Part shown: one piece after another, positions 13,063 through 26,710 of the stretch
How the letters are laid out: each line of letters opens with the position of its first letter
Numbering within the stretch: position 1 is the first letter of the stretch
Sequence record: PZ452579.1
Length of the DNA: 64,000 nt
From: a phage
Reading direction: 5' to 3' (one strand)
Notes under the pieces: generated by a model
Told to the model about the DNA's origin: nothing
Seen by the model: only the letters and a program-made list of their open reading frames with translations
Database searches by the model: none
Position numbers and translations under genes: made by a program

Positions 13063-13404
13063 TTAAAAGAATTTAAATTTTTTCTTGGTTCGTTCATTAA
13101 AAGCTTGTTGTACTTGCATTGTAACACATTTTTCAACATGTGGTGCAAGTTCTGCTTTTCTGTCCTGGTCAAGAACTGCAAAGTCCATTACGATTTTACC
13201 ATCAACCCAGTCTAGTTTTGTAATATAGACTATATGATGGGAACCGTCTTCAAGTGTAATCAGAATCTCTTGAATGACATTTTCCATTGCTGAACGGATA
13301 ATTTTAAGAGATTCATTAAACACTCGTTCTTTGCGAATGTCTTCCCCTTCCGAAGAAGGGGATTCATCAACGATTTCTAGATTTAAATCATCGAGATTAT
13401 TCAT
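13063..13404 (-). CDS. 40: gp40 head vertex assembly protein (by synteny)
   Basis: ORF between 41 and uvsX; track start is TTG at 13425, first ATG at 13404. Confidence 0.6.
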   Translation of the reverse strand: MNNLDDLNLEIVDESPSSEGEDIRKERVFNESLKIIRSAMENVIQEILITLEDGSHHIVYITKLDWVDGKIVMDFAVLDQDRKAELAPHVEKCVTMQVQQAFNERTKKKFKFF

Positions 13405-14569
13405 CGAAATCTTCCATTTCGTCAAGGTCGTTTTCTATATCTGCTGCAGACGGAGCATCAGAAGTTTTAACCGGAACTTTAGTTGTTGCTTTGCAATTAA
13501 TAAGGTCGTTAACAGCGTCATCAACTTCTTTAATAGAAGAGATAGCACCTAGTTTATATTTAGTTTCAATTGCATCTCGGAAAGGTTTGTGTTTAAACAA
13601 AGGTCCCCAGAATTCTACACAATCAGTAGCTTTAGCACGCCATGATTTTTCTTCACGAATCATTTCACCTGTTTCTTCGTCAAGGAATTCGCGAGCATAC
13701 CAACCGGCTTTAGGCTTAACTACAAAACCAATTTCAGTTGCCATTTCTAACAAGCCACTGAATGGGTCAATACCGCCATCAAAATTAACCGTGATCGGGA
13801 AAGTAGATTTCTCTTTAACTGTGCGAGATTTTTCTGCTTTCAACGTGAAGTCATAACCGGTCAATTCTGTACCTTCTTTAACCTGACGTTTAGAGATAAA
13901 AAATACCGTGTTGGCAGAATAAAGAATACCTGTACCACCGCCCATAATCTCTTTAGGATACAATCCGCCGATTTCCATTGCTGTATGGTTAATTGCAACA
14001 CACGGAATATCTTTAATAGTCAAATACGGGGTCACAATACGGAAAAGAGATTTAAGTGCCTTAGCACGAGACATATCACCTACGACTTTCTCGTTCAATG
14101 CATCTTCGGTTTCTTTCTTAGATGCAGTATTACCAATCGAGTCAATAAAGATAATAACTTTATCACCGCGTTCAATAGCGTCAAGCTGATTAGTCATATC
14201 AACTTTAAGTTGTTCGACAGATTGAATCGGAGTATGAACTACACGGTCTAAATCAACACCCATTGAACGAAAATAAGATTCTGAAGCACCGAATTCTGAG
14301 TCATAAAACAAACAGATTGCATCTTTATATTTCTTCATATACGCTGCAACCATAGTTAGTCCAAACAACGTTTTAAAGTGTTTAGAAGGAGCAGCAAAAA
14401 TAGTTAAGCCTGATTGCAACCCTGCATTCAGAGCACCACCTAGTGCAATATTCAACATCGGAATACGAGTAGGGACTTCATCACGATTATTAAACAGCTT
14501 AGACTTAGTCAAGTCTGCAGTCATTTTAGAAGTAGAAGCTTTAATCAGACGAGATTTTAAATCAGACAT
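13397..14569 (-). CDS. uvsX: UvsX recombinase (RecA-like)
   Basis: 390 aa; MSDLKSRLIKASTSKMTA... and RecA fold motifs; matches T4 UvsX. Confidence 0.95.
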   Translation of the reverse strand: MSDLKSRLIKASTSKMTADLTKSKLFNNRDEVPTRIPMLNIALGGALNAGLQSGLTIFAAPSKHFKTLFGLTMVAAYMKKYKDAICLFYDSEFGASESYFRSMGVDLDRVVHTPIQSVEQLKVDMTNQLDAIERGDKVIIFIDSIGNTASKKETEDALNEKVVGDMSRAKALKSLFRIVTPYLTIKDIPCVAINHTAMEIGGLYPKEIMGGGTGILYSANTVFFISKRQVKEGTELTGYDFTLKAEKSRTVKEKSTFPITVNFDGGIDPFSGLLEMATEIGFVVKPKAGWYAREFLDEETGEMIREEKSWRAKATDCVEFWGPLFKHKPFRDAIETKYKLGAISSIKEVDDAVNDLINCKATTKVPVKTSDAPSAADIENDLDEMEDFDE

Positions 14570-14667: not shown

Positions 14668-15216
14668 TTAACGAGCCCATTTGATGATTTCTGTAATCAA
14701 ATCATTACGTTCGCTTGCATTAAATCCTATAACTTTGTTAGCACCATCATGATTAAGTAATTGATACGTTTGGATTTTGTTATGAATTGCAAACTCTTCA
14801 AAATGTGAAATGACTGTATTAAAACCGAATGAAGACAAAGTAATAAGGTCGTCTTCAAAACTTTCAGTCATTTCGTTACGTGTTAAAATAATTGTGAACA
14901 CATCATGGTTTTGGCAAAGACGAATATAATCCTGTTCATAAACGTCAAGAACCGAGTCCGCATCTTGTCGAATACGTCCATAAACCCAGTTACTAATATA
15001 TCCACGGTCTAACAGATAAATCTTAGTAGGGTCTAAATAATTCAACATCGTTTCGAAACAGCCAACTTCGTTTCGAGACTTAACATCGAAACGTCCATCA
15101 ACTGTTCGTTTAGGGAAATCAATCTTTACATATCTTTCACTAATTTCCATTATGTCATTAATGAAAGTTGTTTTACCAGCATTATCCGGGCCATCTACTA
15201 AAATAATTTTAGCCAT
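14668..15216 (-). CDS. P-loop kinase (dNK/dNMP-kinase or small sugar-kinase-like)
   Basis: 182 aa; Walker A GPDNAGKTT and LLDRGY (DR motif); occupies part of T4 beta-glucosyltransferase slot. Confidence 0.6.
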   Translation of the reverse strand: MAKIILVDGPDNAGKTTFINDIMEISERYVKIDFPKRTVDGRFDVKSRNEVGCFETMLNYLDPTKIYLLDRGYISNWVYGRIRQDADSVLDVYEQDYIRLCQNHDVFTIILTRNEMTESFEDDLITLSSFGFNTVISHFEEFAIHNKIQTYQLLNHDGANKVIGFNASERNDLITEIIKWAR

Positions 15217-15217
15217 T

Positions 15218-16117
15218 TTATTCCTCGATTACGACATCTTCGTATTTAGGTATATTATACGGCGAAGAAATTAAAGCATTAAAGTAGATGAACTCACCAA
15301 GACCTGGATGGAATACTTCTTCAGGATTTTCGAAATATTGAATCTTCGGACGTCCTTTAAGAATTTGATAGTACTCAGTTTTAGTCGGTTTAAAAATTCG
15401 AATCAGCGCTTCTTCAGGATACTTATTTCTGTCGAAGCTATTATTTGGATCGGTTATATAAAGCGGTTGACCTAATTGAATTGCACATTCAACCACTTGT
15501 TCAAAACGATAGCATGGGTCACTAATTCGAAATGGATGAAAAATACCATCTAGATGAATAGGAGCCAAATCACCTACAAGACGCTGCATGATGGAAGGAC
15601 GTATAACTTTCTGGGTTATGATAATCTTATTACCATCGGCACCAGCGTTAACCAGCACTTCCTTTTGACGTTTATTCAACACAGTTGTTTGGATTGAACG
15701 ATTAACCGACAACATGTCGGTTTTTAAGAATTCGTCAATATAAAAACGTGGTTTATTAGGGTCTGCGGTGATATTGAAATTGAATTCTACATCAAAAGCG
15801 CCGTCATATCCAGTGATATCTGTGATTAGAAAATCACAATCATAATAAGCAATTAATGAATCAACCACAAATTCATTTTCAGACCAGAAATATTTACGAG
15901 TGTTATACGCGTTATCTTTATACCATAATGGAACAAACTTAAATTCTGGGAAAAGACGTTCACATTCTTTAATATCAGATGCATTACGTGGATATGTAAT
16001 CACATCACCTGGATTAGCACGGTGCAAATGAAGTTGGAAGTTGCCATCCTTAAGGATAGCATACTGTCCAGTTTCATAAGACCGCATACTCAAGATAGGT
16101 ACGCGGAAAATAGCCAT
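15218..16117 (-). CDS. Hypothetical protein at bgt locus (candidate hmC sugar transferase)
   Basis: 299-aa ORF, tightly coupled to flanking genes; no recognisable motif; function inferred only from position. Confidence 0.5.
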   Translation of the reverse strand: MAIFRVPILSMRSYETGQYAILKDGNFQLHLHRANPGDVITYPRNASDIKECERLFPEFKFVPLWYKDNAYNTRKYFWSENEFVVDSLIAYYDCDFLITDITGYDGAFDVEFNFNITADPNKPRFYIDEFLKTDMLSVNRSIQTTVLNKRQKEVLVNAGADGNKIIITQKVIRPSIMQRLVGDLAPIHLDGIFHPFRISDPCYRFEQVVECAIQLGQPLYITDPNNSFDRNKYPEEALIRIFKPTKTEYYQILKGRPKIQYFENPEEVFHPGLGEFIYFNALISSPYNIPKYEDVVIEE

Positions 16118-16833
16118 TAGTCAAGGAATCCTTTAACATAATCAAAATCACGTTCAAACACATGGGCACTTACCATGGTATGAGTATAATCACCAACTTC
16201 TACACCACATTCGTTAGCGATATAATGAAGTAATTTTCCTTGGAGATAAAAATCCAACTGCATAACAACAGCACAGTTCTGAGAACGCATATGACAGTGG
16301 GTATAAAGCTTACCATCGCGAATATAATAAGTCACTGAGTCAGTACATGGATATTCAAGTGTTTCGTCCGAATCAAGCAAAGCCTGATCAGAACTTTCTA
16401 GAATTTGGAACACAACTCTTCGAGAGTTAGGCTTCTCTTTAAGTTCTTTTAGAAGAGCTGGTAATTGGGCTGCAATGCGAGGACCATAGAAAGTGTTGAA
16501 GTTCGCAGGCAAAGCATCTGATTTTGGTTTAGAAATAAATTTAGCGACATTAGGATATGCCTTAAACGCTTCTTCTGCATCAGTACCACCAGAAATCATA
16601 AATTTCCAGAAGTCTTCGGCATATTCATAAGAGATGCGGTTAATACGTGGGTCGGTCATTTTGAATGATGATGGAGTGTCAACAACTACTGTCATAGACC
16701 CAATTTCATTACAACGTCCAATACGAGAATCAGTTACGAATTCCGGGTTTTCTAAAATTTCACGATTGACTGCTTTAAATGCGGCTTGAAAATCTGCGGC
16801 TTTGATATATTTCATTGTGTTATGTTTTCCCAT
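16117..16833 (-). CDS. 42: Thymidylate-synthase-fold pyrimidine hydroxymethylase (gene 42-like dCMP hydroxymethylase)
   Basis: 238 aa; catalytic Cys in YPCTDS, RSQN...QLDFY segment alignable to T4 gp42 RSND...FRNDYA with Asp retained at the cytosine-specificity position; divergent from T4. Confidence 0.75.
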   Translation of the reverse strand: MGKHNTMKYIKAADFQAAFKAVNREILENPEFVTDSRIGRCNEIGSMTVVVDTPSSFKMTDPRINRISYEYAEDFWKFMISGGTDAEEAFKAYPNVAKFISKPKSDALPANFNTFYGPRIAAQLPALLKELKEKPNSRRVVFQILESSDQALLDSDETLEYPCTDSVTYYIRDGKLYTHCHMRSQNCAVVMQLDFYLQGKLLHYIANECGVEVGDYTHTMVSAHVFERDFDYVKGFLD

Positions 16834-16874: not shown

Positions 16875-17114
16875 TTATTTGAATTTCTTGGCAATGTTGA
16901 TATAACGTAAAGCTTCAGCATCGATACTTCCAAGAACACTATGAAGAAATGCATCAGCGTAATATTCTAGTTGAACAGGTTCTTTAATCACTTTAGCCGC
17001 TTTGGTTTCAAACAGGCCCATAAGGGCCTTTTTAAGAATTTGTTCGTTAGTGTTCAGTTTCATAGTCAAAATCTCTTCATTAAGTTGGTGGTTAAAAGTT
17101 TTTCTAGAAATCAT
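16875..17114 (-). CDS. Hypothetical soluble protein (imm position, not Imm-like)
   Basis: 79 aa, no TM segment. Confidence 0.45.
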   Translation of the reverse strand: MISRKTFNHQLNEEILTMKLNTNEQILKKALMGLFETKAAKVIKEPVQLEYYADAFLHSVLGSIDAEALRYINIAKKFK

Positions 17115-18271
17115 TCTGGGTACCTCAAAGCGTCGTCAGAGTTAGTTATATCAATAATAGATATAGAATTTTCTGATAACCCGTTTTTAGATAACTGACG
17201 TTTATAATATCTTTCACAATATGTACACGTCGTCCCGCAGATTTCATTAGCACAATCGAAATCTGGATGTCTGAACCACCTTTTTTCTAAAAAGCCATCT
17301 AACAAAGAGGTTTCAATATTTACTGTATGTGAAAACTCGGTCTCATTTTCAAGAGTGAAAATAGTCTCTAAAGGCTTCCACAGTTCTAACAAATTACCTT
17401 CAAACTTTTCAGAAGCGTATGCTTCAAGAACTTTCAAAATGTAGTCTGTGCTACCTGTACGTCCTGAAACTTTGAATTGAGTGATACCGATATCATTATA
17501 AAGTTTCAAATCTTGAGGACGAACAAAACGAGTTCTCAACCAGTTAAATGGGTCTGTATCACGAGCTTTAATACAGTGCTGCATTGGATATCCGTTTAAG
17601 GATTTAGCATCATCAGCTGTAACATCAGTACTATGGAAAATATAGCAAGAGTCACGATAGCTACAATGTGTTGTATACCCTTTACCAGCATTAGAACAGA
17701 ACTCATTTACAAGAACTTCAAATATTATATTGTTCTTATTGCAAAACTCTGCTGCACGCTTCAGGAAAGAAACTGAACGGTTCTTATGAATTCCGCAACA
17801 GACCTTTTTGATATTATATTGGTCATGCAAGTATTTGATTTGAGTTACAGCATCGACATGTAGAATTGTTGAAACTTCAATCTCAATGTCTTTATTGACT
17901 TCACGAACAATTTCCATAACAACAGGGTTAGCGATAGTAATACGCCATACGCCTATTGACCAAAGATACTGAACATAATCCTGAATAGCTTTCTTCTTCC
18001 ACTCAACTAGTTCTCTTTTTGAACCAGGATTTATCGTGTTGAGCGTATAGTTAAAGCAAATACCTAATTCGTTACAACGTTTAACGTAATCTTCTAACAT
18101 CTTTTTGTCAACGTCAGGAAGCCTAAAATCAGGTCTGGCTGCTACAAAAGCCATTTCTCTTGTAGAGCCGTATACTTCGTTTATCAAGCTATTAGGATAA
18201 GTTTTATTGAGCTCTACGATTTTATCAAGAAGAGCTAAATCAAAATTCGTTCCGATTTTAAAAGTATTCAT
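17111..18271 (-). CDS. Hypothetical Cys-rich protein within sugar cassette (candidate transferase)
   Basis: About 386 aa from MNTFKIG...; C-terminal CANEICGTTCTYC cluster; no confident family. Confidence 0.5.
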   Translation of the reverse strand: MNTFKIGTNFDLALLDKIVELNKTYPNSLINEVYGSTREMAFVAARPDFRLPDVDKKMLEDYVKRCNELGICFNYTLNTINPGSKRELVEWKKKAIQDYVQYLWSIGVWRITIANPVVMEIVREVNKDIEIEVSTILHVDAVTQIKYLHDQYNIKKVCCGIHKNRSVSFLKRAAEFCNKNNIIFEVLVNEFCSNAGKGYTTHCSYRDSCYIFHSTDVTADDAKSLNGYPMQHCIKARDTDPFNWLRTRFVRPQDLKLYNDIGITQFKVSGRTGSTDYILKVLEAYASEKFEGNLLELWKPLETIFTLENETEFSHTVNIETSLLDGFLEKRWFRHPDFDCANEICGTTCTYCERYYKRQLSKNGLSENSISIIDITNSDDALRYPE

Positions 18272-18327
18272 TTTTTTGCATCTCACGTTAATTGATGCGA
18301 TGGTTTTTGCAGGTCTTACTTAAATTA

Positions 18328-18714
18328 TTATAGATTCGGTTTATATGATTTAAATGTTTCGAATTCGCCTTTATTCATAAGAGCTTTGAATTCGTCAGGA
18401 CGCATAGCTTTGTCGTCGATAATCCAATCATATACTGGTTTATGTGTTAGCAAATTATGGTACTTTAAGCCAATGTTTGCCAAGTTCTGGATCAGACTTG
18501 GGAGAATGTCAATTGCTATACGACCAGGACCTACTGACTTCATACCGCGAGCAGTGTAAAGCGTTATGGTATGCCCTGCATCATACAGGGCATTAATGGC
18601 AGACACCATTTCGACGTCTGGTTTGAAGTTCACGTAATCACGATTGTTATTCCACTCTGTTATACAATCATCGACATCAAAACAAAGATTAAGCATGTTT
18701 TCTACACGGTGCAT
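18328..18714 (-). CDS. HAD-superfamily phosphatase (small, C0-type)
   Basis: FDVDDCIT (motif I), YTARG (motif II), KP...IIDDK (motifs III/IV); start ATG shares a base with upstream stop (TAATG). Confidence 0.7.
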   Translation of the reverse strand: MHRVENMLNLCFDVDDCITEWNNNRDYVNFKPDVEMVSAINALYDAGHTITLYTARGMKSVGPGRIAIDILPSLIQNLANIGLKYHNLLTHKPVYDWIIDDKAMRPDEFKALMNKGEFETFKSYKPNL

Positions 18715-20399
18715 TAGATTCGTTCCCATTGATGAGTGATATCGCCACCGATTGGACGATAGGAAACACCAGTTTCTTTATCAGTTAGTACCCATTTACC
18801 AGGATTTTTTGTAATCAGAGTAGCCGTTACAGGTTCTGCTACGTCATAACTAATAGAGCCGTCTTGAAGTACACGGCCCATATTACGTAATTGCTTAGTC
18901 AGAAGTTCCATACCTTTATAATATGCGGCTACCGCTTTAAGTGGATTATTCTTGAAATAACCACCTAATGCAATCCAGATAATTGCCACTGCCAAATGAT
19001 GATACTCGTTAAACGAACTCATCTTTCCATATTTGTAAACTAATGGATTGATGTTAATAGTCACATTACAAGTTGTTTCATCAATAGTAAACTGTCCCCA
19101 GGTCGGATTAGCGTTGAATTCATCATAACCTGAAACAGCATAAAGCACTTTAGCTTCATCGTACAATTTTGGCCCGTAAATCTTGGTTTCGCCAAAATAT
19201 CCACGAGGGTCGATAAACTTGACTTCGCCGTTATCAGTAATCATAGTATTACTGAAGTTCGGGTCACCATGAATAACAGAGTACTGTCCCTGAGAACGGT
19301 TATGATAACGAATAAGGTGTTCTAAAGCTTGTTTCAGCATTGGCTTCAGACGTCCAATCTTAGTGTAGTTCACATGTGTGATTTTACCAAATGAATCAAT
19401 CAATGGTTGAATGCTTTCACAACGATCAATAACTTTCGTATAGAATTCTTTAGTGAAATCACGACGAACAGTTTCAGGACTTACAAAATAAGTGTCTGTG
19501 CTGAATTTCAGTGCATCTAAAATTGCATCAACAATTTGTGGACGAGCAAGACTTGATTTGGATTTAATATATTCAAATGCCGGCTTACCTTTAATGCGTT
19601 CCATTTCAAAGTTATTTTCATTAACAGAAACTAACTGAGGAACTGAATCTGATTTCACTTTAAGATACCATGAAATCTCATCTTTCTGAAGAGCTCGGCC
19701 CTGTTCGGTTAATGCGAATTTAGTTACAGTTTCTTCACCAATTTCAACTGCATTAAAACTACGATTAAGTTCACGAACTTCATGAGCTTTTTCAAGTTTA
19801 GGCATATCACCTAAATCAATTAGATTCATAAGCTCTGATTTATTGAATGCACTGCCGTAAAGGAATTCTACGAAATCACGTCCTTTGCAGTATTCGTGAA
19901 TTTCCTCATCAGTAGAACCCATGTAGAATTCCCAGTCTTTGAACTGATAAATTCCTACAACATTACCACCTGTTGAACCTACGTTAGTGATATTTTCACC
20001 GTCGAAATTATATCGACATTCGTCACCCTTAACATAGATTGCGTTAACATTCCAAGACCATGAACCAAAATCAGGAATAATATCACACCAGTTAACAATT
20101 ACATTATGGCCGTCTAAATCTTTGTGTAATTTAGCAAGAGCATAAGCAGAACCATACGCTTCATCAACTGTACGAATAGTCACATTGAACCCTTCTTGCT
20201 CACAATAAGCTCGAACAGTTTCAGCAAATTTTGAATGAACTACTACAATAATTTCATCTGCGCCAAGGTCAGAATAAATTGTATACAAATTGCTCAGAAT
20301 AGTGTCTTGTTTATAGTTCACAAGAACTTTTGGAATATGGTGAGTAATTGGATATAAACGAGTTGCCAGTCCAGCACCAAGAATAACAGCTTTTTTCAT
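18714..20399 (-). CDS. Bifunctional sugar-1-phosphate nucleotidyltransferase / sugar kinase
   Basis: 561 aa; N-terminal ILGAGLATRL (GxGxR NTase motif), C-terminal IHGDPNFSNTMITDNGEVKFIDPRGYFG (APH/choline-kinase-like catalytic loop). Confidence 0.75.
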   Translation of the reverse strand: MKKAVILGAGLATRLYPITHHIPKVLVNYKQDTILSNLYTIYSDLGADEIIVVVHSKFAETVRAYCEQEGFNVTIRTVDEAYGSAYALAKLHKDLDGHNVIVNWCDIIPDFGSWSWNVNAIYVKGDECRYNFDGENITNVGSTGGNVVGIYQFKDWEFYMGSTDEEIHEYCKGRDFVEFLYGSAFNKSELMNLIDLGDMPKLEKAHEVRELNRSFNAVEIGEETVTKFALTEQGRALQKDEISWYLKVKSDSVPQLVSVNENNFEMERIKGKPAFEYIKSKSSLARPQIVDAILDALKFSTDTYFVSPETVRRDFTKEFYTKVIDRCESIQPLIDSFGKITHVNYTKIGRLKPMLKQALEHLIRYHNRSQGQYSVIHGDPNFSNTMITDNGEVKFIDPRGYFGETKIYGPKLYDEAKVLYAVSGYDEFNANPTWGQFTIDETTCNVTININPLVYKYGKMSSFNEYHHLAVAIIWIALGGYFKNNPLKAVAAYYKGMELLTKQLRNMGRVLQDGSISYDVAEPVTATLITKNPGKWVLTDKETGVSYRPIGGDITHQWERI

Positions 20400-20453: not shown

Positions 20454-20584
20454 TCATACTTTGCTTGTAGTCCAATCATAATCCATCCAATTACAAGTGT
20501 TGGAATCATTACTGGAGCCGTTAAGCTCCAGTAGATAGTCATGACAAGCATCAATAGTAAAAGTCCTATTGTTATTGCTTTCAT
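20441..20584 (-). CDS. 47-aa hydrophobic peptide (single TM)
   Basis: Manual translation MKAITIGLLLLMLVMTIYWSLTAPVMIPTLVIGWIMIGLQAKYECFN; ATG overlaps SIS gene stop (ATGA); below track size cut-off. Confidence 0.35.
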   Translation of the reverse strand: MKAITIGLLLLMLVMTIYWSLTAPVMIPTLVIGWIMIGLQAKYECFN

Positions 20585-21216
20585 TGTTCGCCTCGTAACA
20601 TGGCACCTAGTGCACCGCCTGGATGGAACTTAAGGAAATCATTAGAGGTAAATCCGCGTTCAGACGAAAGGTTGATAGCGAACGTATCGATAAGCGCTAA
20701 CAACAATGTAGTAGACATTGTCGGAGCTAAAGAGTTCTCGTCAACTTCTACCGCGATACCGGTACAGAACGTATAATCAAAAAGAGCTTCGTATTCTTGT
20801 GGAATGTCAGGGTTACAATGTAACAGAATCTGTTTAACCTGAGGACGAATCATACGAAGATGTTTAGCAACACCTATCATTTCTTCAGTCTTACCAGAAC
20901 GACTGATGTGAATCAACACATCATTAGGTGCAATAAATCCTGCGTCACCATGAGAATAATGCCCAGTGTTCAAATACATGCTAGGAATACCTAGTGAAGC
21001 AAAAGTCTCGGAAGCTTTAGTTGCGATATTAGCATTCTTACCAACACCTGTAATAATTACACGACTTTCATAATTACTCAGTCCAGGGCGACGAAGAGTT
21101 TCAAGAATAGCATTATATCGGGCAGGGTTTTGACTAATTACTTTAGCCATAGTGGCAAGAGATGAAGCTTGTTTTACGATTGCGTCAATAGCGATAGTGA
21201 TTGGTGTAGTTTTCAT
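20581..21216 (-). CDS. SIS-domain phosphosugar isomerase (KdsD/GutQ-like arabinose-5-phosphate isomerase, SIS domain only)
   Basis: 211 aa; ITGVGKNANIATK ... HGDAG ... SRSGKTEE pattern matching KdsD SIS domain rather than GmhA. Confidence 0.75.
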   Translation of the reverse strand: MKTTPITIAIDAIVKQASSLATMAKVISQNPARYNAILETLRRPGLSNYESRVIITGVGKNANIATKASETFASLGIPSMYLNTGHYSHGDAGFIAPNDVLIHISRSGKTEEMIGVAKHLRMIRPQVKQILLHCNPDIPQEYEALFDYTFCTGIAVEVDENSLAPTMSTTLLLALIDTFAINLSSERGFTSNDFLKFHPGGALGAMLRGEQ

Positions 21217-21256: not shown

Positions 21257-23968
21257 TCAAAAATCAAACATATCGAACAGAGATGCTTTCTTCTCGTAAT
21301 CGAGTTTCGCTGCTGATGTGAATCCTTCAAGCGGTTTAATAAATGTCTTCTCAAGGAGAACAGTGTAGTCCATCCAATGAAGTACATCATCTTTGATTAA
21401 ATCAGTGATTTCCGTACCAGAAGGCCATGCGATACATTTATCACCGAATGGGTTTCCTTCACGTAAAGGCAGAACATATACTTTTTCACCTTCTACAACT
21501 TGTGGAGCATCAATATTACCTTTGATAGCCCGGTTATATGTCAGAATTCCACGAATATGGAACGGGCATTTAGGTCCTGGATATCCACCTACATCATATT
21601 TAGCAATGTTATTCGCAGAAGATACCGACGCGATGCTAATATAATTCAATTGACGGAATTCTTTTTCAAACTCTTTAAAATATTCTTGTAATGATTCTTC
21701 ACCTTCTTGAAGCATACGACGAATACATTCTTTAAGAGCTTTCTGTACTGCTTTAGGAGTCGAAGATTTCTGAGTCTCTAGACCCATGATTTTGAGTTTA
21801 GGCTCAGCGTATCTGGTTCCTTCCATATCCCACACGTTTAATGCATAACGTTTCTTACCAGTCCAGAATCCACCAATACCTTTAGAACCGAGCGGAGGAC
21901 CAGCGATAGCTTCTCGGTCCATGAACATTAAGTGTTGTTTATTGTTCATGTATTCACACATTTCACGGAAACCTTTATCAATAGCTGGTTCCATACGTTC
22001 ACGTGCAAACTTATCTAAGAAGTCTACCCAATGGTTGGTATCACGGAATTTAGATTCACCAACCTTATCGATAATTTTATCAGCAGATACGTAAATAGAG
22101 TCTGTATCACCATAAAGAACGAAAGCTTCACCTTCTGTACCACAAACTTCATTCAGATATTCATTAACTTTACGTTCAATCCACTGTAAAGCCATTTGAC
22201 CAAATGTTGTGATTGCAGTAGCATTACGCAAATCATAATAACGGAACCAAACGTTGCCAAGTGCACCATAAAGTGAGTTGATAAGCAATTTACGGTTAAT
22301 CTGTGCAGTCATACCTGCAACTTCAGTACGTTGAGCTCTAAACAACATTTCATTAAGAGATTTAGCAGACAACTTTTTAATCTTTTCTTTAATCTCATCA
22401 CTGAAGTCGAAACGATAATCAACATCTAATGGTTCGTCAACAGAAAGATTAGGATTATGTAAGGCCTCTTTAATTATTTCACCATTACGTTGAGCCGCAA
22501 GCATATAACCTTTATGTTCTTTACGTTGATTAAAGACTTTAGTGATTTCAGTTGGAACAACACCGTCACGGTCTTTATAATACATCATGCCGTTAGGAGA
22601 ACAACTGTACACATCAGAAGGACGTTCAGCAACAGCGTTAATATAATCATGTAATGGAGCTACTTTAAACGTTCCTGCTATTGTTTCTGGGCTAATATTC
22701 ACTTGGCGAATGATGCTTGGATACAGAGATGTTAGGTCGAAGCTCATCACATATTTGTATCGATTTGGAATAGGTTCCTTAACAAAAGCACCCGGGTAAG
22801 GTTGAACTGGATGCGAACGACCTTGTGGAATCACCTTGTTTTGTTCTTTAAGGCTATTAAAAATAATAGCGTCCCACGTTTTAATTGGGCTAAACACAGA
22901 TTGAATCTGTATCTTAGCATAATAACCCATGTCCAAGCTCAAGTTAATGAACTGACGCTTAGCATCAATTTGCAATACACGATACACGTCGATAATGTTA
23001 TAAGAAATATATCGTTGGTGATTGCTTTCACGAAGCTTAGAAATAGGGCCATCATATTTCAGTTTACCAACGTTCAATTCAAATTCTGAAATGTAATCCA
23101 GAGAATACGACGGTTGATTGGTAAAAGAGAATTTTTTGTAAAGGTCGATGTAATCAAGAACAGAGATACCGAACAATGTAATGATTTCTCGTGAACCATA
23201 CATGTTTTCAATAACTTTAACACGAGTCTTGCGATGTGGTGACAACCGTTTTGCTGTGGATTCGCCAAAAATATTCTTGATTCGGTTATACACATATGGA
23301 ATATCAAATGACTCAACGTTCCATCCAGTCAAAATGACAGGAGTTTTCTGTTGCCAGAAGTTGAGATATTCCATCAACAATTCTTTTTCGTTATCGAACG
23401 GCATATAAATGATTTTATCGATAATTTCAGATGGAACTTCATCACCGCCTTGTTCTTGAAGCTTAGCAGCGATTTCAATAGACCATTCTTCTACATTACC
23501 ATATGGAGAATTCAATAGATCAAATACGTAGAACCTGTCGTCAATTGAGTCATAATGGGTGATAGCATCAATCGGATGTTTTGCTTGTGACGGCTCAGGG
23601 AACCCGTCCGGAGATGTTACTTCGATGTCGAAGTTAGCCACACGAATTTTTGTATGGTCGTATTTGATTTCATAGTTATAAGTGTCAGACAAATACGCCA
23701 ATTTGAAATCGTCCATGCCAAGTGCTTCAAGTCCGATATCTTCCATGCGTTTAATCCATTGTGAGGCATCACGCATATTAGCGAACAACTTACGAGTACA
23801 CGGCTTACCGTAGATATCGAAATATTTCGTAGCCTGACTTTCTGGACAATGAGCAAACAGTGATGGTTTATATTCTACTTCACGAGTACGTTCACGGCCG
23901 TTAGAATCGATGTAACGTTCAAAAATTGAATCACCGATCTGTTCAACCGTTAAGTAAAATTCTTTCAT
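21257..23968 (-). CDS. 43: DNA polymerase gp43 (family B)
   Basis: 903 aa; exonuclease and polymerase motifs including YGDTDS; T4 gp43 size and position. Confidence 0.95.
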   Translation of the reverse strand: MKEFYLTVEQIGDSIFERYIDSNGRERTREVEYKPSLFAHCPESQATKYFDIYGKPCTRKLFANMRDASQWIKRMEDIGLEALGMDDFKLAYLSDTYNYEIKYDHTKIRVANFDIEVTSPDGFPEPSQAKHPIDAITHYDSIDDRFYVFDLLNSPYGNVEEWSIEIAAKLQEQGGDEVPSEIIDKIIYMPFDNEKELLMEYLNFWQQKTPVILTGWNVESFDIPYVYNRIKNIFGESTAKRLSPHRKTRVKVIENMYGSREIITLFGISVLDYIDLYKKFSFTNQPSYSLDYISEFELNVGKLKYDGPISKLRESNHQRYISYNIIDVYRVLQIDAKRQFINLSLDMGYYAKIQIQSVFSPIKTWDAIIFNSLKEQNKVIPQGRSHPVQPYPGAFVKEPIPNRYKYVMSFDLTSLYPSIIRQVNISPETIAGTFKVAPLHDYINAVAERPSDVYSCSPNGMMYYKDRDGVVPTEITKVFNQRKEHKGYMLAAQRNGEIIKEALHNPNLSVDEPLDVDYRFDFSDEIKEKIKKLSAKSLNEMLFRAQRTEVAGMTAQINRKLLINSLYGALGNVWFRYYDLRNATAITTFGQMALQWIERKVNEYLNEVCGTEGEAFVLYGDTDSIYVSADKIIDKVGESKFRDTNHWVDFLDKFARERMEPAIDKGFREMCEYMNNKQHLMFMDREAIAGPPLGSKGIGGFWTGKKRYALNVWDMEGTRYAEPKLKIMGLETQKSSTPKAVQKALKECIRRMLQEGEESLQEYFKEFEKEFRQLNYISIASVSSANNIAKYDVGGYPGPKCPFHIRGILTYNRAIKGNIDAPQVVEGEKVYVLPLREGNPFGDKCIAWPSGTEITDLIKDDVLHWMDYTVLLEKTFIKPLEGFTSAAKLDYEKKASLFDMFDF

Positions 23969-24023
23969 TTAATTTCCTTTAGACGAGTTATTGTCTTTTG
24001 TTTGTTGATGAACTTATTATACT

Positions 24024-24046
24024 CCAAATGGGACCGAAGTCCCATT
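24024..24046 (-). terminator. C(UUCG)G hairpin between regA and 43
   Basis: AATGGGAC-CGAA-GTCCCATT 8-bp stem; immediately 3' of regA stop. Confidence 0.5.
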
Positions 24047-24049
24047 GCT

Positions 24050-24418
24050 TTAATTACCAATTGTATATTTTGCTTTCAAAGTCCAGTCATCTTTCTGTTT
24101 AAAAGAGATAACTCGGAAGTTATTAGTCAGGCTAAATAGATCTTCACGAGCAGAGTCTTCAATAACAATCAATCCCCAGTCTTCAAGCAACTGGGCAATC
24201 GAATCACGTCGCTGATAGTCTTCACCGTCAATATCAACCTGACGTCCATCCATACGCAACATTTCTTTAAAGTGGACGATATAGTACTTACCTTGCTTTT
24301 GGAGGATATGACAAGACTGGTAAAGGACTTTATCCTTGTTATTAGCGATGCCCATACGGGTCAAAGTCTCTTTGACTTTCAGAAAATCTTCAGGGTTCTT
24401 CAATTTAATTTCAATCAT
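24050..24418 (-). CDS. regA: Translational repressor RegA
   Basis: MIEIKLKNPEDFLKVKETLTRMGIANNKDKVLYQSCHILQK... near-identical to T4 RegA; start at homologous Met. Confidence 0.9.
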   Translation of the reverse strand: MIEIKLKNPEDFLKVKETLTRMGIANNKDKVLYQSCHILQKQGKYYIVHFKEMLRMDGRQVDIDGEDYQRRDSIAQLLEDWGLIVIEDSAREDLFSLTNNFRVISFKQKDDWTLKAKYTIGN

Positions 24419-24420
24419 TT

Positions 24421-24984
24421 TTACCATTCCAATGCTATTTTTTTAAATTGTTTTTGTTCTTTCACATTTTTTGTAACTTCTTTGAGAAACTCATCAGTGA
24501 CCATGGCCTTCAGTTCTTTAAGGACTATTGGCAACTTGTTATTTTTTTCAAGGAGCCGCTTATACTCGGTAGCATCATTCATGTTGATTGTGTAATGTTT
24601 CATCAACAGTTTGATAACTAGTAACTCTGAAGTGTCTTCGACTAGTTTAGCCCATTTAGAGAATCGACGACCACGCGGAATTGCCGCCATCATATAGTTG
24701 AAGTGCGCTTCATCACTTAATTCAGAACCGACTAAGTTCATCATGTAAACAGCTGGCATACATTCTGGGAACTGTGATAATGAGTTCTCAACCATAAATT
24801 TTGAGTAGTCGACCTGAGCAATTGACATAGATTTCTTTTCATTAATAGCATTAATGATTTTAAAGAATTCATTCTCAGGTTTTTCTTTAAACATATCAGC
24901 ACATTTTTGAATCGCATCAGCGTCATTAGACTTCCATGCAATTTGGTGCTCGTTAAGCCGGACGTCATCATCAAATAAGTTCAT
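24421..24984 (-). CDS. 62: Clamp loader subunit gp62
   Basis: 187 aa; matches T4 gp62 along its length. Confidence 0.88.
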
Positions 24985-24985
24985 A

Positions 24986-25948
24986 TTATTTCCAAGTCAG
25001 TTCGCAGGTCAGTTGAAGAAGCATATACATAACATGTAATTCAATATTACTTGCTAATCCATGAAACTTATTGTTTTCGCCTGCAATTTCATAAAGCGAA
25101 ATAATACTTTTACCAGGTGCAACTTGGTCATAACATTCTGAAACTAATTTATCGATGAACCATGAATAATCTGCAGCGTATTTTGGAGCTAATGCACGAA
25201 GCTGTTTGATATCTTTGTTCTTCATTGCTTCGATAACATCAGAGACTGTGCCACGGTCATTAGTTACGATAGACAAAATACCCGCATCAAGAACACCTTT
25301 AGACGAGTACTGGTCTAATTGACCAATTGTACGACGAAAGTCCGGGAAGTTCTTTTTAACCAGAGCTGCAACAACTTTCATATCGGCGATTTCGATATTT
25401 TCATTCTTACAGATTTCAACCATACGATGAATCATTTTCTTCATCATCGAGATTTTATCTTCTTCGGTTGGACGACCGAATTCGATAACTCGACAACGAC
25501 TACGTAATGGTTCAATAATTCCATCGATGTTGTTAGCAGTAATAACAATAGAGCAGTTACTAGAGAATTCTTCCATAAACGTACGAAGGTGTCGTTGTGA
25601 TTCGGCGAGGCCACTACGGTCAAATTCATCGATAACGATAACTTTAGGCTTGCCTTCCATTGAGACCGAACGAGCGAATGCAGTTAACGGACCACGCACA
25701 AAATCAATCTTACAATCAGAACCGTTGACGAACATCATTTCGGCATTGATATCATTACATAATGCTTTTGCTACGGTTGTTTTACCTGTACCAGGAGAAG
25801 GAGAGTGCAAAATAATATGAGGAAGTTTTCCTTTAGATACTAAAGACTTGAATGTTTCATGGTCATACTCAGGCAGAATACATTCGTCAATGGAAGAAGG
25901 ACGATATTTCTGTTCTAGAATGTGTTCTTTGGAATTGATAGTAATCAT
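24986..25948 (-). CDS. 44: Clamp loader ATPase gp44
   Basis: 320 aa; Walker [14 protein letters not shown]+ motifs. Confidence 0.92.
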
Positions 25949-26023
25949 GTAATTTTCCTCATTATCATTAAACTGGAGGATTTCTCCTCCATAATCGTAT
26001 CACAATAAACGTAAAGCTTTGAC

Positions 26024-26710
26024 TTAGAAGTCGTGAGTAGAATCGGCTTCCATCGCAATAACATAACTTACTTGAGAGCTTTCAAACTTGGCTGCAACTT
26101 TATCACCAGCTCCCCACAACATTACTTTATAGTTACCTGGCTGGATTTTCATATTAGCCATATTGATTACGAAGTTAAAGTTGTTAGAACCATCATAATC
26201 GGTAAGAGTCAAAGAATACTTAGGACGAGTTAGTCCAGAATCTTCAACTTTATTATAGCCATTGATAACAATTTTACCATCTTTATTTGTAATAGCAATT
26301 GTATCAATCTGAAGACCACGTGAAACTCGAAGTAATTGTTGAAGGTCTTCAGCTTTAATTTCAGTAATCACAGAAGCCACTGGGAATTGAATTGGCTTAT
26401 TAGGAAAAACAATGGTGCTCTTGTCAGCGGCAGGCCAATAAACTGTGGAACGTGTATCTGCAATTTTAATATTGCCATCAGTGTGCATTGAAATTTCAGC
26501 ATCGTCAGACACTAGACTCAAAATGCTTAAGAAGCTATTCAAATCATAAAGTGCTACGTCAAAATCAATTTCATCGGAGATATTTGCTTCCGCATAAGTG
26601 GTGCCATTAACTGCACGAGTCATAATAAATTTACCTTGACTCAGCAGAATGCCGGAGTTAATAGAGGCAAAGTTTTTCAGAATAGCGATAGTATCTTTAG
26701 ACAGTTTCAT
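26024..26710 (-). CDS. 45: Sliding clamp gp45
   Basis: MKLSKDTIAILKNFASINSGILL... matches T4 gp45; start at homologous Met. Confidence 0.92.
   Translation of the reverse strand: MKLSKDTIAILKNFASINSGILLSQGKFIMTRAVNGTTYAEANISDEIDFDVALYDLNSFLSILSLVSDDAEISMHTDGNIKIADTRSTVYWPAADKSTIVFPNKPIQFPVASVITEIKAEDLQQLLRVSRGLQIDTIAITNKDGKIVINGYNKVEDSGLTRPKYSLTLTDYDGSNNFNFVINMANMKIQPGNYKVMLWGAGDKVAAKFESSQVSYVIAMEADSTHDF

Follow-up and report, generated by a model that had tools for sequence, protein, structure and literature searches.

The two genes that lie between the TS homologue and uvsX in this phage, encoding a 182-aa kinase and a 299-aa protein, probably form the downstream end of an arabinosyl-5-hydroxycytosine operon of the RB69 type, in which the kinase would act on a modified dCMP and the 299-aa protein would be the first arabinosyltransferase. 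The window, the whole 64,000-nt stretch of record PZ452579.1 that was analysed, is assigned on the basis of its sequence to an RB69-like Mosigvirus. It is 97.8% identical at the nucleotide level to RB69 positions 23379-26581 (3.2 kb) and its genes from gp43 to uvsX are arranged as in RB69; more than 150 Mosigvirus genomes, RB69 included, show 97.7-98.3% identity in the region. With this near-identity and collinearity, the genes belong to the cluster known as gp45-gp55 in RB69 and afh in HY126. The genes and junctions of the operon are as follows.

14668..15216, minus strand: 182-aa thymidylate-kinase-fold nucleotide kinase, RB69 gp45 homologue
15214..15226, minus strand: junction between the stop codon of the 299-aa gene and the kinase ATG, GAGGAATAAAATG, with 1 base between stop and ATG
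15218..16117, minus strand: 299-aa GT-B fold glycosyltransferase, predicted base-proximal arabinosyltransferase on 5-hydroxycytosine, RB69 gp46:47 homologue
16115..16119, minus strand: overlap of the TS homologue and the 299-aa gene, stop/start TAATG, in gacTAATGgct (16119-16115)
16117..16833, minus strand: 238-aa TS homologue, predicted 5-hydroxy-dCMP synthase and not dCMP hydroxymethylase (Pfam PF00303, RSQN...D signature)
16875..17114, minus strand: 79-aa conserved protein, RB69 ORF049c (phrog_8601, E 5.1e-52)
17111..18286, minus strand: 391-aa peptidase-U32-family protein, RB69 gp50 (Pfam PF01136, E 7.5e-11)
18328..18729, minus strand: 133-aa HAD-type sugar-phosphate phosphatase, RB69 gp51, AfhF analogue (TIGR01689, E 4.3e-13)
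18714..20399, minus strand: 561-aa sugar-1-phosphate nucleotidyltransferase and kinase, RB69 gp52:53, AfhE analogue (PF00483 at the N-terminus)
20581..21216, minus strand: 211-aa SIS-domain phosphosugar (arabinose-5-phosphate) isomerase, RB69 gp55 (from annotations and a profile)

Both reading frames are real, with ATG starts in the ORF listing at 14668-15216 and 15218-16117 on the minus strand, and the motifs pointed out in the initial annotation are present in the kinase (VDGPDNAGKTT at residues 7-17, within which GPDNAGKTT occupies 9-17, and LLDRGY at 68-73). On the minus strand the genes run gp43 ... TS homologue (16117-16833), 299 aa, 182 aa, uvsX (13397-14569), gp40 and gp41. In T4 the order is 42, b-gt, segA, uvsX, and the earlier placement of the pair in the T4 b-gt slot was thus correct. 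Translational coupling to the "gene 42" homologue, also proposed there, is borne out by the TAATG overlap and by the single base between the stop of the 299-aa gene and the kinase ATG. This ATG is preceded in the GAGGAATAAAATG junction by the Shine-Dalgarno-like GAGGAA, which was placed as the ribosome-binding site. A scan for promoters and terminators around the operon gave signal at or below chance level.

Work on the near-identical phages HY126 and Bas46 was reportedly carried out by He et al. 2026 and Mahler et al. 2025. In Bas46 and NRG-P0074, genes of the operon are annotated as "putative thymidylate kinase", "glycosyltransferase" and "UDP-arabinose biosynthesis", and the isomerase equivalents as phosphosugar isomerase or arabinose 5-phosphate isomerase. 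Names obtained by protein-cluster look-up were uninformative ("hypothetical" or a spurious "RNA polymerase binding protein"), and in many Mosigvirus records the genes are called "hypothetical", "RNA polymerase binding protein", "thymidylate synthase" or "dCMP hydroxymethylase". In RB69 the kinase gene is ORF045c (gp45) and the 299-aa gene corresponds to ORF046c plus ORF047c (gp46:47), whose frame is split by 1 extra base in the RB69 deposit, as is likewise the case for ORF052c/053c; the GenBank record of gp46:47 is broken by this 1-nt insertion, whereas the gene in the window is intact and encodes 299 aa. Both gene assignments are already known as published predictions for near-identical phages: a table in Lee et al. 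(NAR 2026, PMC13326640) gives "nucleotide kinase" for gp45 and "arabinosyltransferase 1" for gp46:47, the former appearing as a table entry only and being absent from the discussion in the text. The assignment as such re-discovers genes predicted in RB69, DLP3 and HY126 and alone adds little. Correct annotation is of practical value: Mosigvirus are candidates for phage therapy and have DNA that is resistant to restriction and to CRISPR.

The identity of the base follows from the neighbouring TS homologue, which carries the D169N/N177D signature (E. coli ThyA numbering) of 5-hydroxy-dCMP synthases, with RSQNCAVVMQLD in the window and RSNDVVFGFRND in T4, that is, RSQN...D where gp42 has RSND...D. 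The protein is nearly identical to PDB entries 9iqc/9ir2 (E 4.5e-162); these were deposited as "thymidylate synthase" and are taken to be the phage HY126 enzyme, as the GT entry 9iqz is titled "phage HY126". D169N is the hydroxylase diagnostic used by Lee et al. (PMC13326640). Because of this signature, which is the one expected of an arabinosyl-5-hydroxycytosine cluster, and the match to the HY126 enzyme, the "gene 42" homologue is predicted to be a 5-hydroxy-dCMP synthase and the acceptor base in the window phage to be 5-hydroxycytosine, not hmC. For RB69, gp48 (the TS homologue) was shown experimentally to make 5-hydroxy-dCMP using O2 and flavin, and the DNA was found to carry mono- and di-arabinosylated 5-hydroxycytosine and no hmC derivatives (PMC13326640). 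Arabinosylated 5-hydroxycytosine in virion DNA has been shown both for RB69 and for Mosigvirus NP. These observations speak against hmC as the base, which had been assumed at the outset.

We had initially recognised no motif in the 299-aa protein, in agreement with the lack of any match in Pfam, NCBIfam (E ≤ 0.1) or PADLOC, and a profile of its family gave nothing beyond a chance match (E 0.47) against PDB sequences. The description as an orphan did not survive, since the protein matches phrog_3891 at E 5.8e-156, its family occurs in 349 phage records and its assignment is already published. The family is nevertheless small in size, an exhaustive HMMER search of 1.84 billion proteins yielding 230 cluster representatives at E ≤ 0.001. 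Fold prediction, which had been suggested as a check, gave a confident AlphaFold2 model (59 homologues; pLDDT 95, pTM 0.89) with two Rossmann-like domains that superpose on known GT-B enzymes. The closest likeness is to GT4-type retaining GT-B enzymes (sucrose-phosphate synthase 6kih, BshA, PimA and WaaG) and to T4 alpha-GT, at 8-13% identity; unlike the GT4-type enzymes, the protein has no Pfam GT match, falls outside the CAZy GT4/Pfam Glycos_transf_1 profiles and has a shorter chain (299 aa versus 340-400). With T4 b-gt it shares the slot, downstream of a TS homologue and upstream of uvsX, the GT-B fold and, as predicted, the decoration of the C5-oxygen of a modified cytosine, while no similarity in sequence or close structure was found. 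PDB 9iqz is a homologue of RB69 gp3 and is different from the 299-aa protein. Fold and context are therefore consistent with the initial proposal in predicting a sugar transferase, though one that would act on 5-hydroxycytosine and not on hmC.

Homologues of the 299-aa protein include DLP3 gp79 ("arabinosyltransferase 1") and Thanatos TH1_063, and the family is found in phages of Klebsiella, Serratia, Enterobacter, Proteus, Yersinia, Edwardsiella and Shewanella, as well as in Rhizobium phages when a distant member serves as the query. The gp3-type transferase is confined to Mosigvirus, with one copy, and Acinetobacter phages, with two. The number of arabinoses reported is one for Thanatos, two for RB69 and three for DLP3 (PMC13326640), and LC53 and Bas46 were reported to carry mono- and di-arabinosylation, respectively. 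Across these phages the count of transferase genes equals the reported count of arabinoses, and the 299-aa family is the only one that they all share, which supports a role as the base-proximal transferase. Our search of the accessible literature found no biochemical demonstration of a substrate for either the 299-aa or the 182-aa protein.

The 182-aa protein is predicted to have a nucleoside-monophosphate kinase fold nearest to thymidylate kinases. By sequence it matches PHROG 761 ("thymidylate kinase") at E 1.9e-45, while PF02223 is not reported and TIGR00041 reaches 16.4 bits against a cutoff of 83; the family profile run against PDB thymidylate kinases gave a best E of 0.0035. The nearest solved protein by sequence is SPbeta YorR (PDB 2axp/3kb2), of unknown function, which has the motif DRFxYSNLVY in common with it. 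With thymidylate kinases and the prophage protein YorR the kinase shares the fold, the GxDxxGK(T/S)T P-loop, FPK(R) and DR(G/F)xxSNxVY, the last of these being common to the kinase and YorR, and it differs from them in lying below the family thresholds and in a chain shorter by ~30 residues. Invariant in 23 diverse members are G9, D11, K15, D70, R71, S75, N76, Y79, R113, F120, D122, D123, F132 and N133. The helix at 45-58 is shorter than in thymidylate kinases and the register of R48 against the O4-binding Arg is ambiguous from sequence; for this reason an argument about base specificity from the thymidylate-kinase alignment was dropped. Homologues are RB69 gp45, DLP3 gp78 and RL38J1_214 ("nucleotide kinase").

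To place the pair in context, we put together a set of 56 loci with a homologue of the transferase, drawn from IMG/VR and other assemblies, and scored these using profiles of the window genes; the profile from the 211-aa isomerase, for example, matches the PF01380 genes of L006. The kinase was detected in 52 of the 56, and of the four loci lacking it, three run into the edge of the contig. Several gene orders were seen (TS-GT-kin, kin-TS-GT, kin-U32-TS-GT, TS-kin-GT and kin-GT-U32), and the adjacent TS homologue carries the N169/D177 signature in all but L055, which has Ser at 169. A group of distant loci (L035-L048) consists of TS-GT-kin only, with the isomerase, nucleotidyltransferase and phosphatase absent within 10 kb, which argues against the pentose-kinase role that we had considered for the 182-aa protein. 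That role was rejected on this retention in modules devoid of sugar genes and on the assignment of the sugar kinase of the pathway to the C-terminal domain of the 561-aa protein. A role like that of the 5-hmdU DNA kinases of other phages, which are associated with a dUMP hydroxymethylase and phosphorylate a base substituent after replication, likewise has no support: the kinase has a thymidylate kinase fold, its associated TS homologue is dCMP-specific (Asp 177) and a hydroxylase, and glycosyl transfer from a UDP-sugar does not need activation of the acceptor. What stands of the initial proposal is a kinase linked to the modification pathway, probably not one acting on a sugar or a DNA substituent.

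A search from the kinase side revealed distant relatives that adjoin hmC-type TS homologues (RSxD...D) and are found without the transferase, suggesting that the kinase family travels with dCMP-modifying TS enzymes generally. Between its gp43 and uvsX, Morganella phage MP1 encodes a kinase of 54% identity, and we found no hydroxylase, transferase or sugar genes in its whole 163 kb genome. The simplest reading is that kinases of this family act on what dCMP-modifying TS enzymes make, adding a phosphate to it.

The association of the two genes extends to protein fusions. Among the 230 representatives of the transferase family, eight are fusions in which the transferase is followed by a kinase domain (P0274, P0284, P0287, P0291, P0296, P0312, P0315 and P0316), and P0297 has the reverse arrangement, with the kinase first. 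The kinase domain of the fusions is thymidylate-kinase-like (EGFDRIGKD..., ...SDxVY), and that of P0287 matches PF02223 at E 1.2e-4. At least eight further fusions in this set carry a KdsC-like HAD phosphatase before the transferase. One transferase-kinase fusion, in L109, adjoins an isomerase, a bifunctional enzyme, a HAD protein and a U32 protein. The fusions show partnership in a pathway; because the transferase is also fused to an enzyme of the sugar branch, they are no proof that the transferase and the kinase act directly one after the other.

Taken with the remaining genes of the operon, these data suggest the following scheme. The TS homologue would convert dCMP to 5-hydroxy-dCMP with flavin and O2, as shown for RB69 and HY126, and the 182-aa enzyme may be a kinase dedicated to the modified dCMP of the pathway, producing the diphosphate, possibly in parallel with a dNMP kinase of the T4-gp1 type. 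Host NDP kinase and then the phage polymerase would bring the modified base into DNA. Genes for UDP-arabinose synthesis are present in the same operon, namely the SIS isomerase, the bifunctional enzyme, which has APH-like kinase matches at its C-terminus, and the HAD phosphatase, whose TIGR01689 family is that of a capsule biosynthesis phosphatase. The isomerase, the bifunctional kinase/uridylyltransferase and the phosphatase would lead from ribulose-5-phosphate to UDP-arabinofuranose; the isomerase and phosphatase are predicted for RB69, the AfhE and AfhF steps are reported for HY126, and the roles of RB69 gp52:53/AfhE and gp51/AfhF are described in PMC13326640. The 299-aa GT-B enzyme, judged by fold, synteny and phyletic pattern, would then place the first, base-proximal arabinose on the 5-hydroxyl, and a second would come from an RB69 gp3-type transferase encoded outside the window. 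Four observations sit uneasily with this scheme. A second kinase for 5-hydroxy-dCMP looks redundant beside the RB69 gp1-type dNMP kinase, which phosphorylates 5-hydroxy-dCMP in vitro; MP1 keeps the kinase without the hydroxylase, transferase and sugar genes; Brandt et al. report formation of UDP-xylose by the Thanatos homologue of the 299-aa protein; and the DLP3 transferases, assayed singly, gave no product on 5hoC-DNA.

The first of these would be accounted for if glycosylation preceded replication, with the 299-aa transferase arabinosylating free 5-hydroxy-dCMP, the kinase being specialised for arabinosyl-5-hydroxy-dCMP and the polymerase using the glycosylated dCTP, since the gp1-type kinase handles 5-hydroxy-dCMP and would leave a distinct substrate for the 182-aa enzyme. 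In DNA, 5-hydroxycytosine is a substrate for excision by E. coli Nth (endonuclease III), Nei (endonuclease VIII) and Fpg, so that a base capped before incorporation would be advantageous; such a route would explain how exposure of 5-hydroxycytosine, an oxidative lesion, to host base-excision repair is avoided. The transferase-kinase fusions in both orders and the near-constant company of the two genes also fit. The individual DLP3 transferases, including the 299-aa homologue, did not arabinosylate 5hoC-DNA, and Lee et al. state that they are unable to distinguish addition of the first arabinose to the mononucleotide from addition to DNA (PMC13326640). The transferase family is acidic throughout (median pI 5.0, net charge -13, n=53), though pI is only weak evidence for a nucleotide over a DNA acceptor, as T4 alpha-GT is mildly acidic too (pI 6.1). 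Against this route, every phage DNA glycosylation characterised so far (T4 alpha/beta-GT and DLP3 gp76+gp77) takes place on DNA, the fusions with the HAD phosphatase point to a common pathway and not to successive reactions, distant relatives of the kinase stand beside hmC-type TS homologues where the transferase is absent, and MP1 has the kinase alone. We regard it as the main rival to the scheme above and as clearly less likely. If true, it would to our knowledge be the first nucleotide-level base glycosylation in phage DNA hypermodification. The fusions and the near-obligate co-occurrence sharpen both the question of nucleotide versus DNA acceptor and that of the second kinase, and both are directly testable.

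A kinase dedicated to modified dCMP also has to be weighed against a general dTMP/dNMP kinase that would increase the supply of nucleotides and have no specific role in modification. The thymidylate-kinase fold, the annotation as thymidylate kinase in many records and the retention of the kinase alone in MP1 are all compatible with such a function. We consider it unlikely, as the protein scores under the Pfam and NCBIfam thymidylate-kinase thresholds, accompanies the hydroxylase and the transferase almost invariably in phages of unrelated types, being sometimes fused to the latter, and would duplicate gp1, which T4-like phages already encode and which covers dTMP.

For the 299-aa protein, the report of Brandt et al. 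raises the alternative of a UDP-pentose pyrophosphorylase that makes the activated sugar. Thanatos TH1_063 is homologous at 46.8% identity and lies in the same position between a TS homologue and a kinase, and the purified protein gave UDP-xylose from UTP and xylose-1-phosphate. The predicted fold, however, is GT-B and not that of a nucleotidyltransferase; the 561-aa neighbour already has a PF00483 domain, and its HY126 homologue is reported to have UDP-arabinose pyrophosphorylase activity. Moreover, the family occurs in modules that have no other sugar genes, where a transferase would be needed and a pyrophosphorylase would not, and the absence of transfer in Brandt et al. was recorded with unhydroxylated acceptors (plasmid DNA, dCMP, dCTP and cytosine). 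This makes a pyrophosphorylase very improbable. Least credible, and in our estimation close to untenable, is the original version of an hmC sugar transferase with a kinase for a sugar intermediate or, as in 5-hmdU kinases, for a DNA base substituent: the position equivalent to T4 b-gt and the P-loop kinase nature of the 182-aa protein agree with it, but the neighbour is a hydroxylase and not a hydroxymethylase, RB69 DNA carries 5-hydroxycytosine derivatives, the kinase is found where sugar-activation genes are not nearby, and its fold is that of a nucleoside-monophosphate kinase.

Two further genes of the operon lie upstream of the TS homologue. The 391-aa U32-family protein has four C-terminal cysteines and a weak match to UbiU, and the 79-aa protein (RB69 ORF049c) occurs in some related clusters.

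The gene for the peptidase-U32 protein of the cluster lies on the (-) strand, separated from the hydroxylase gene by a small basic ORF.

17111-18286 (-), peptidase-U32 protein, 391 aa
16875-17114 (-), 79-aa basic protein, pI 9.3, phrog_8601

The U32 protein and RlhA are members of one family; RlhA is an enzyme that depends on Fe-S and prephenate and is required for the 5-hydroxycytidine of E. coli 23S rRNA (PMC5727448). The U32 protein also matched UbiU weakly. Four cysteines are found at its C-terminal end (DCANEICGTTCTYC). Lee et al. labeled the cluster's U32 protein a "sugar or heterocycle reductase" (PMC13326640). We suggest that it may provide a second, O2-independent path to 5-hydroxycytosine. 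The 79-aa phrog_8601 protein is retained in several enteric-phage clusters.

U32 genes were also detected in three viral contigs that are not T4-like.

L054 10954-12051, U32 gene
L056 5783-6865, U32 gene
L059 10885-11973, U32 gene

In all three, the module is ordered kinase-transferase-U32, and the encoded U32 proteins matched the U32 profile built from the T4-like cluster at ~1e-180. No TS homologue was found in the flanks of these modules, even at E<=0.1. Among the phages, U32 is present in most of those infecting facultative anaerobes, was not found within 10 kb in the Acinetobacter and Pseudomonas phage loci, and was not found in the E. coli Dhakavirus-like loci L016-L020.

Two further loci are in Morganella phage MP1 (NC_031020), which has the kinase, and L055, which carries a homologue of the transferase.

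L103 20500-21030, MP1 kinase, between gp43 and uvsX
L055 3615-5254, transferase-homologue locus with no kinase detected

The MP1 kinase is 54% identical to the kinase of the window, and a search of the whole MP1 genome did not reveal the hydroxylase, either transferase type or the sugar genes; its annotations include a dUTPase and a DenB-like endonuclease IV. L055 was the sole untruncated transferase-homologue locus without a detectable kinase, and its TS homologue reads RSQS...D, with Ser replacing Asn at the diagnostic position.

Finally, two genes are split in the RB69 record AY303349, and the cluster of one close relative, NRG-P0074, is interrupted by an insertion.

L003 7219-8119, RB69 transferase (ORF046c/047c)
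L003 10716-12402, RB69 bifunctional sugar enzyme (ORF052c/053c)
L002 10671-11432, NRG-P0074 homing endonuclease gene, with the phosphatase gene on one side and that of the bifunctional sugar enzyme on the other

Comparison with the window showed that both RB69 splits result from single-base insertions, in agreement with Lee et al., who attributed them to sequencing errors (PMC13326640). In NRG-P0074, which carries the homing endonuclease insertion, the 561-aa bifunctional sugar enzyme is wrongly annotated as dCMP deaminase.
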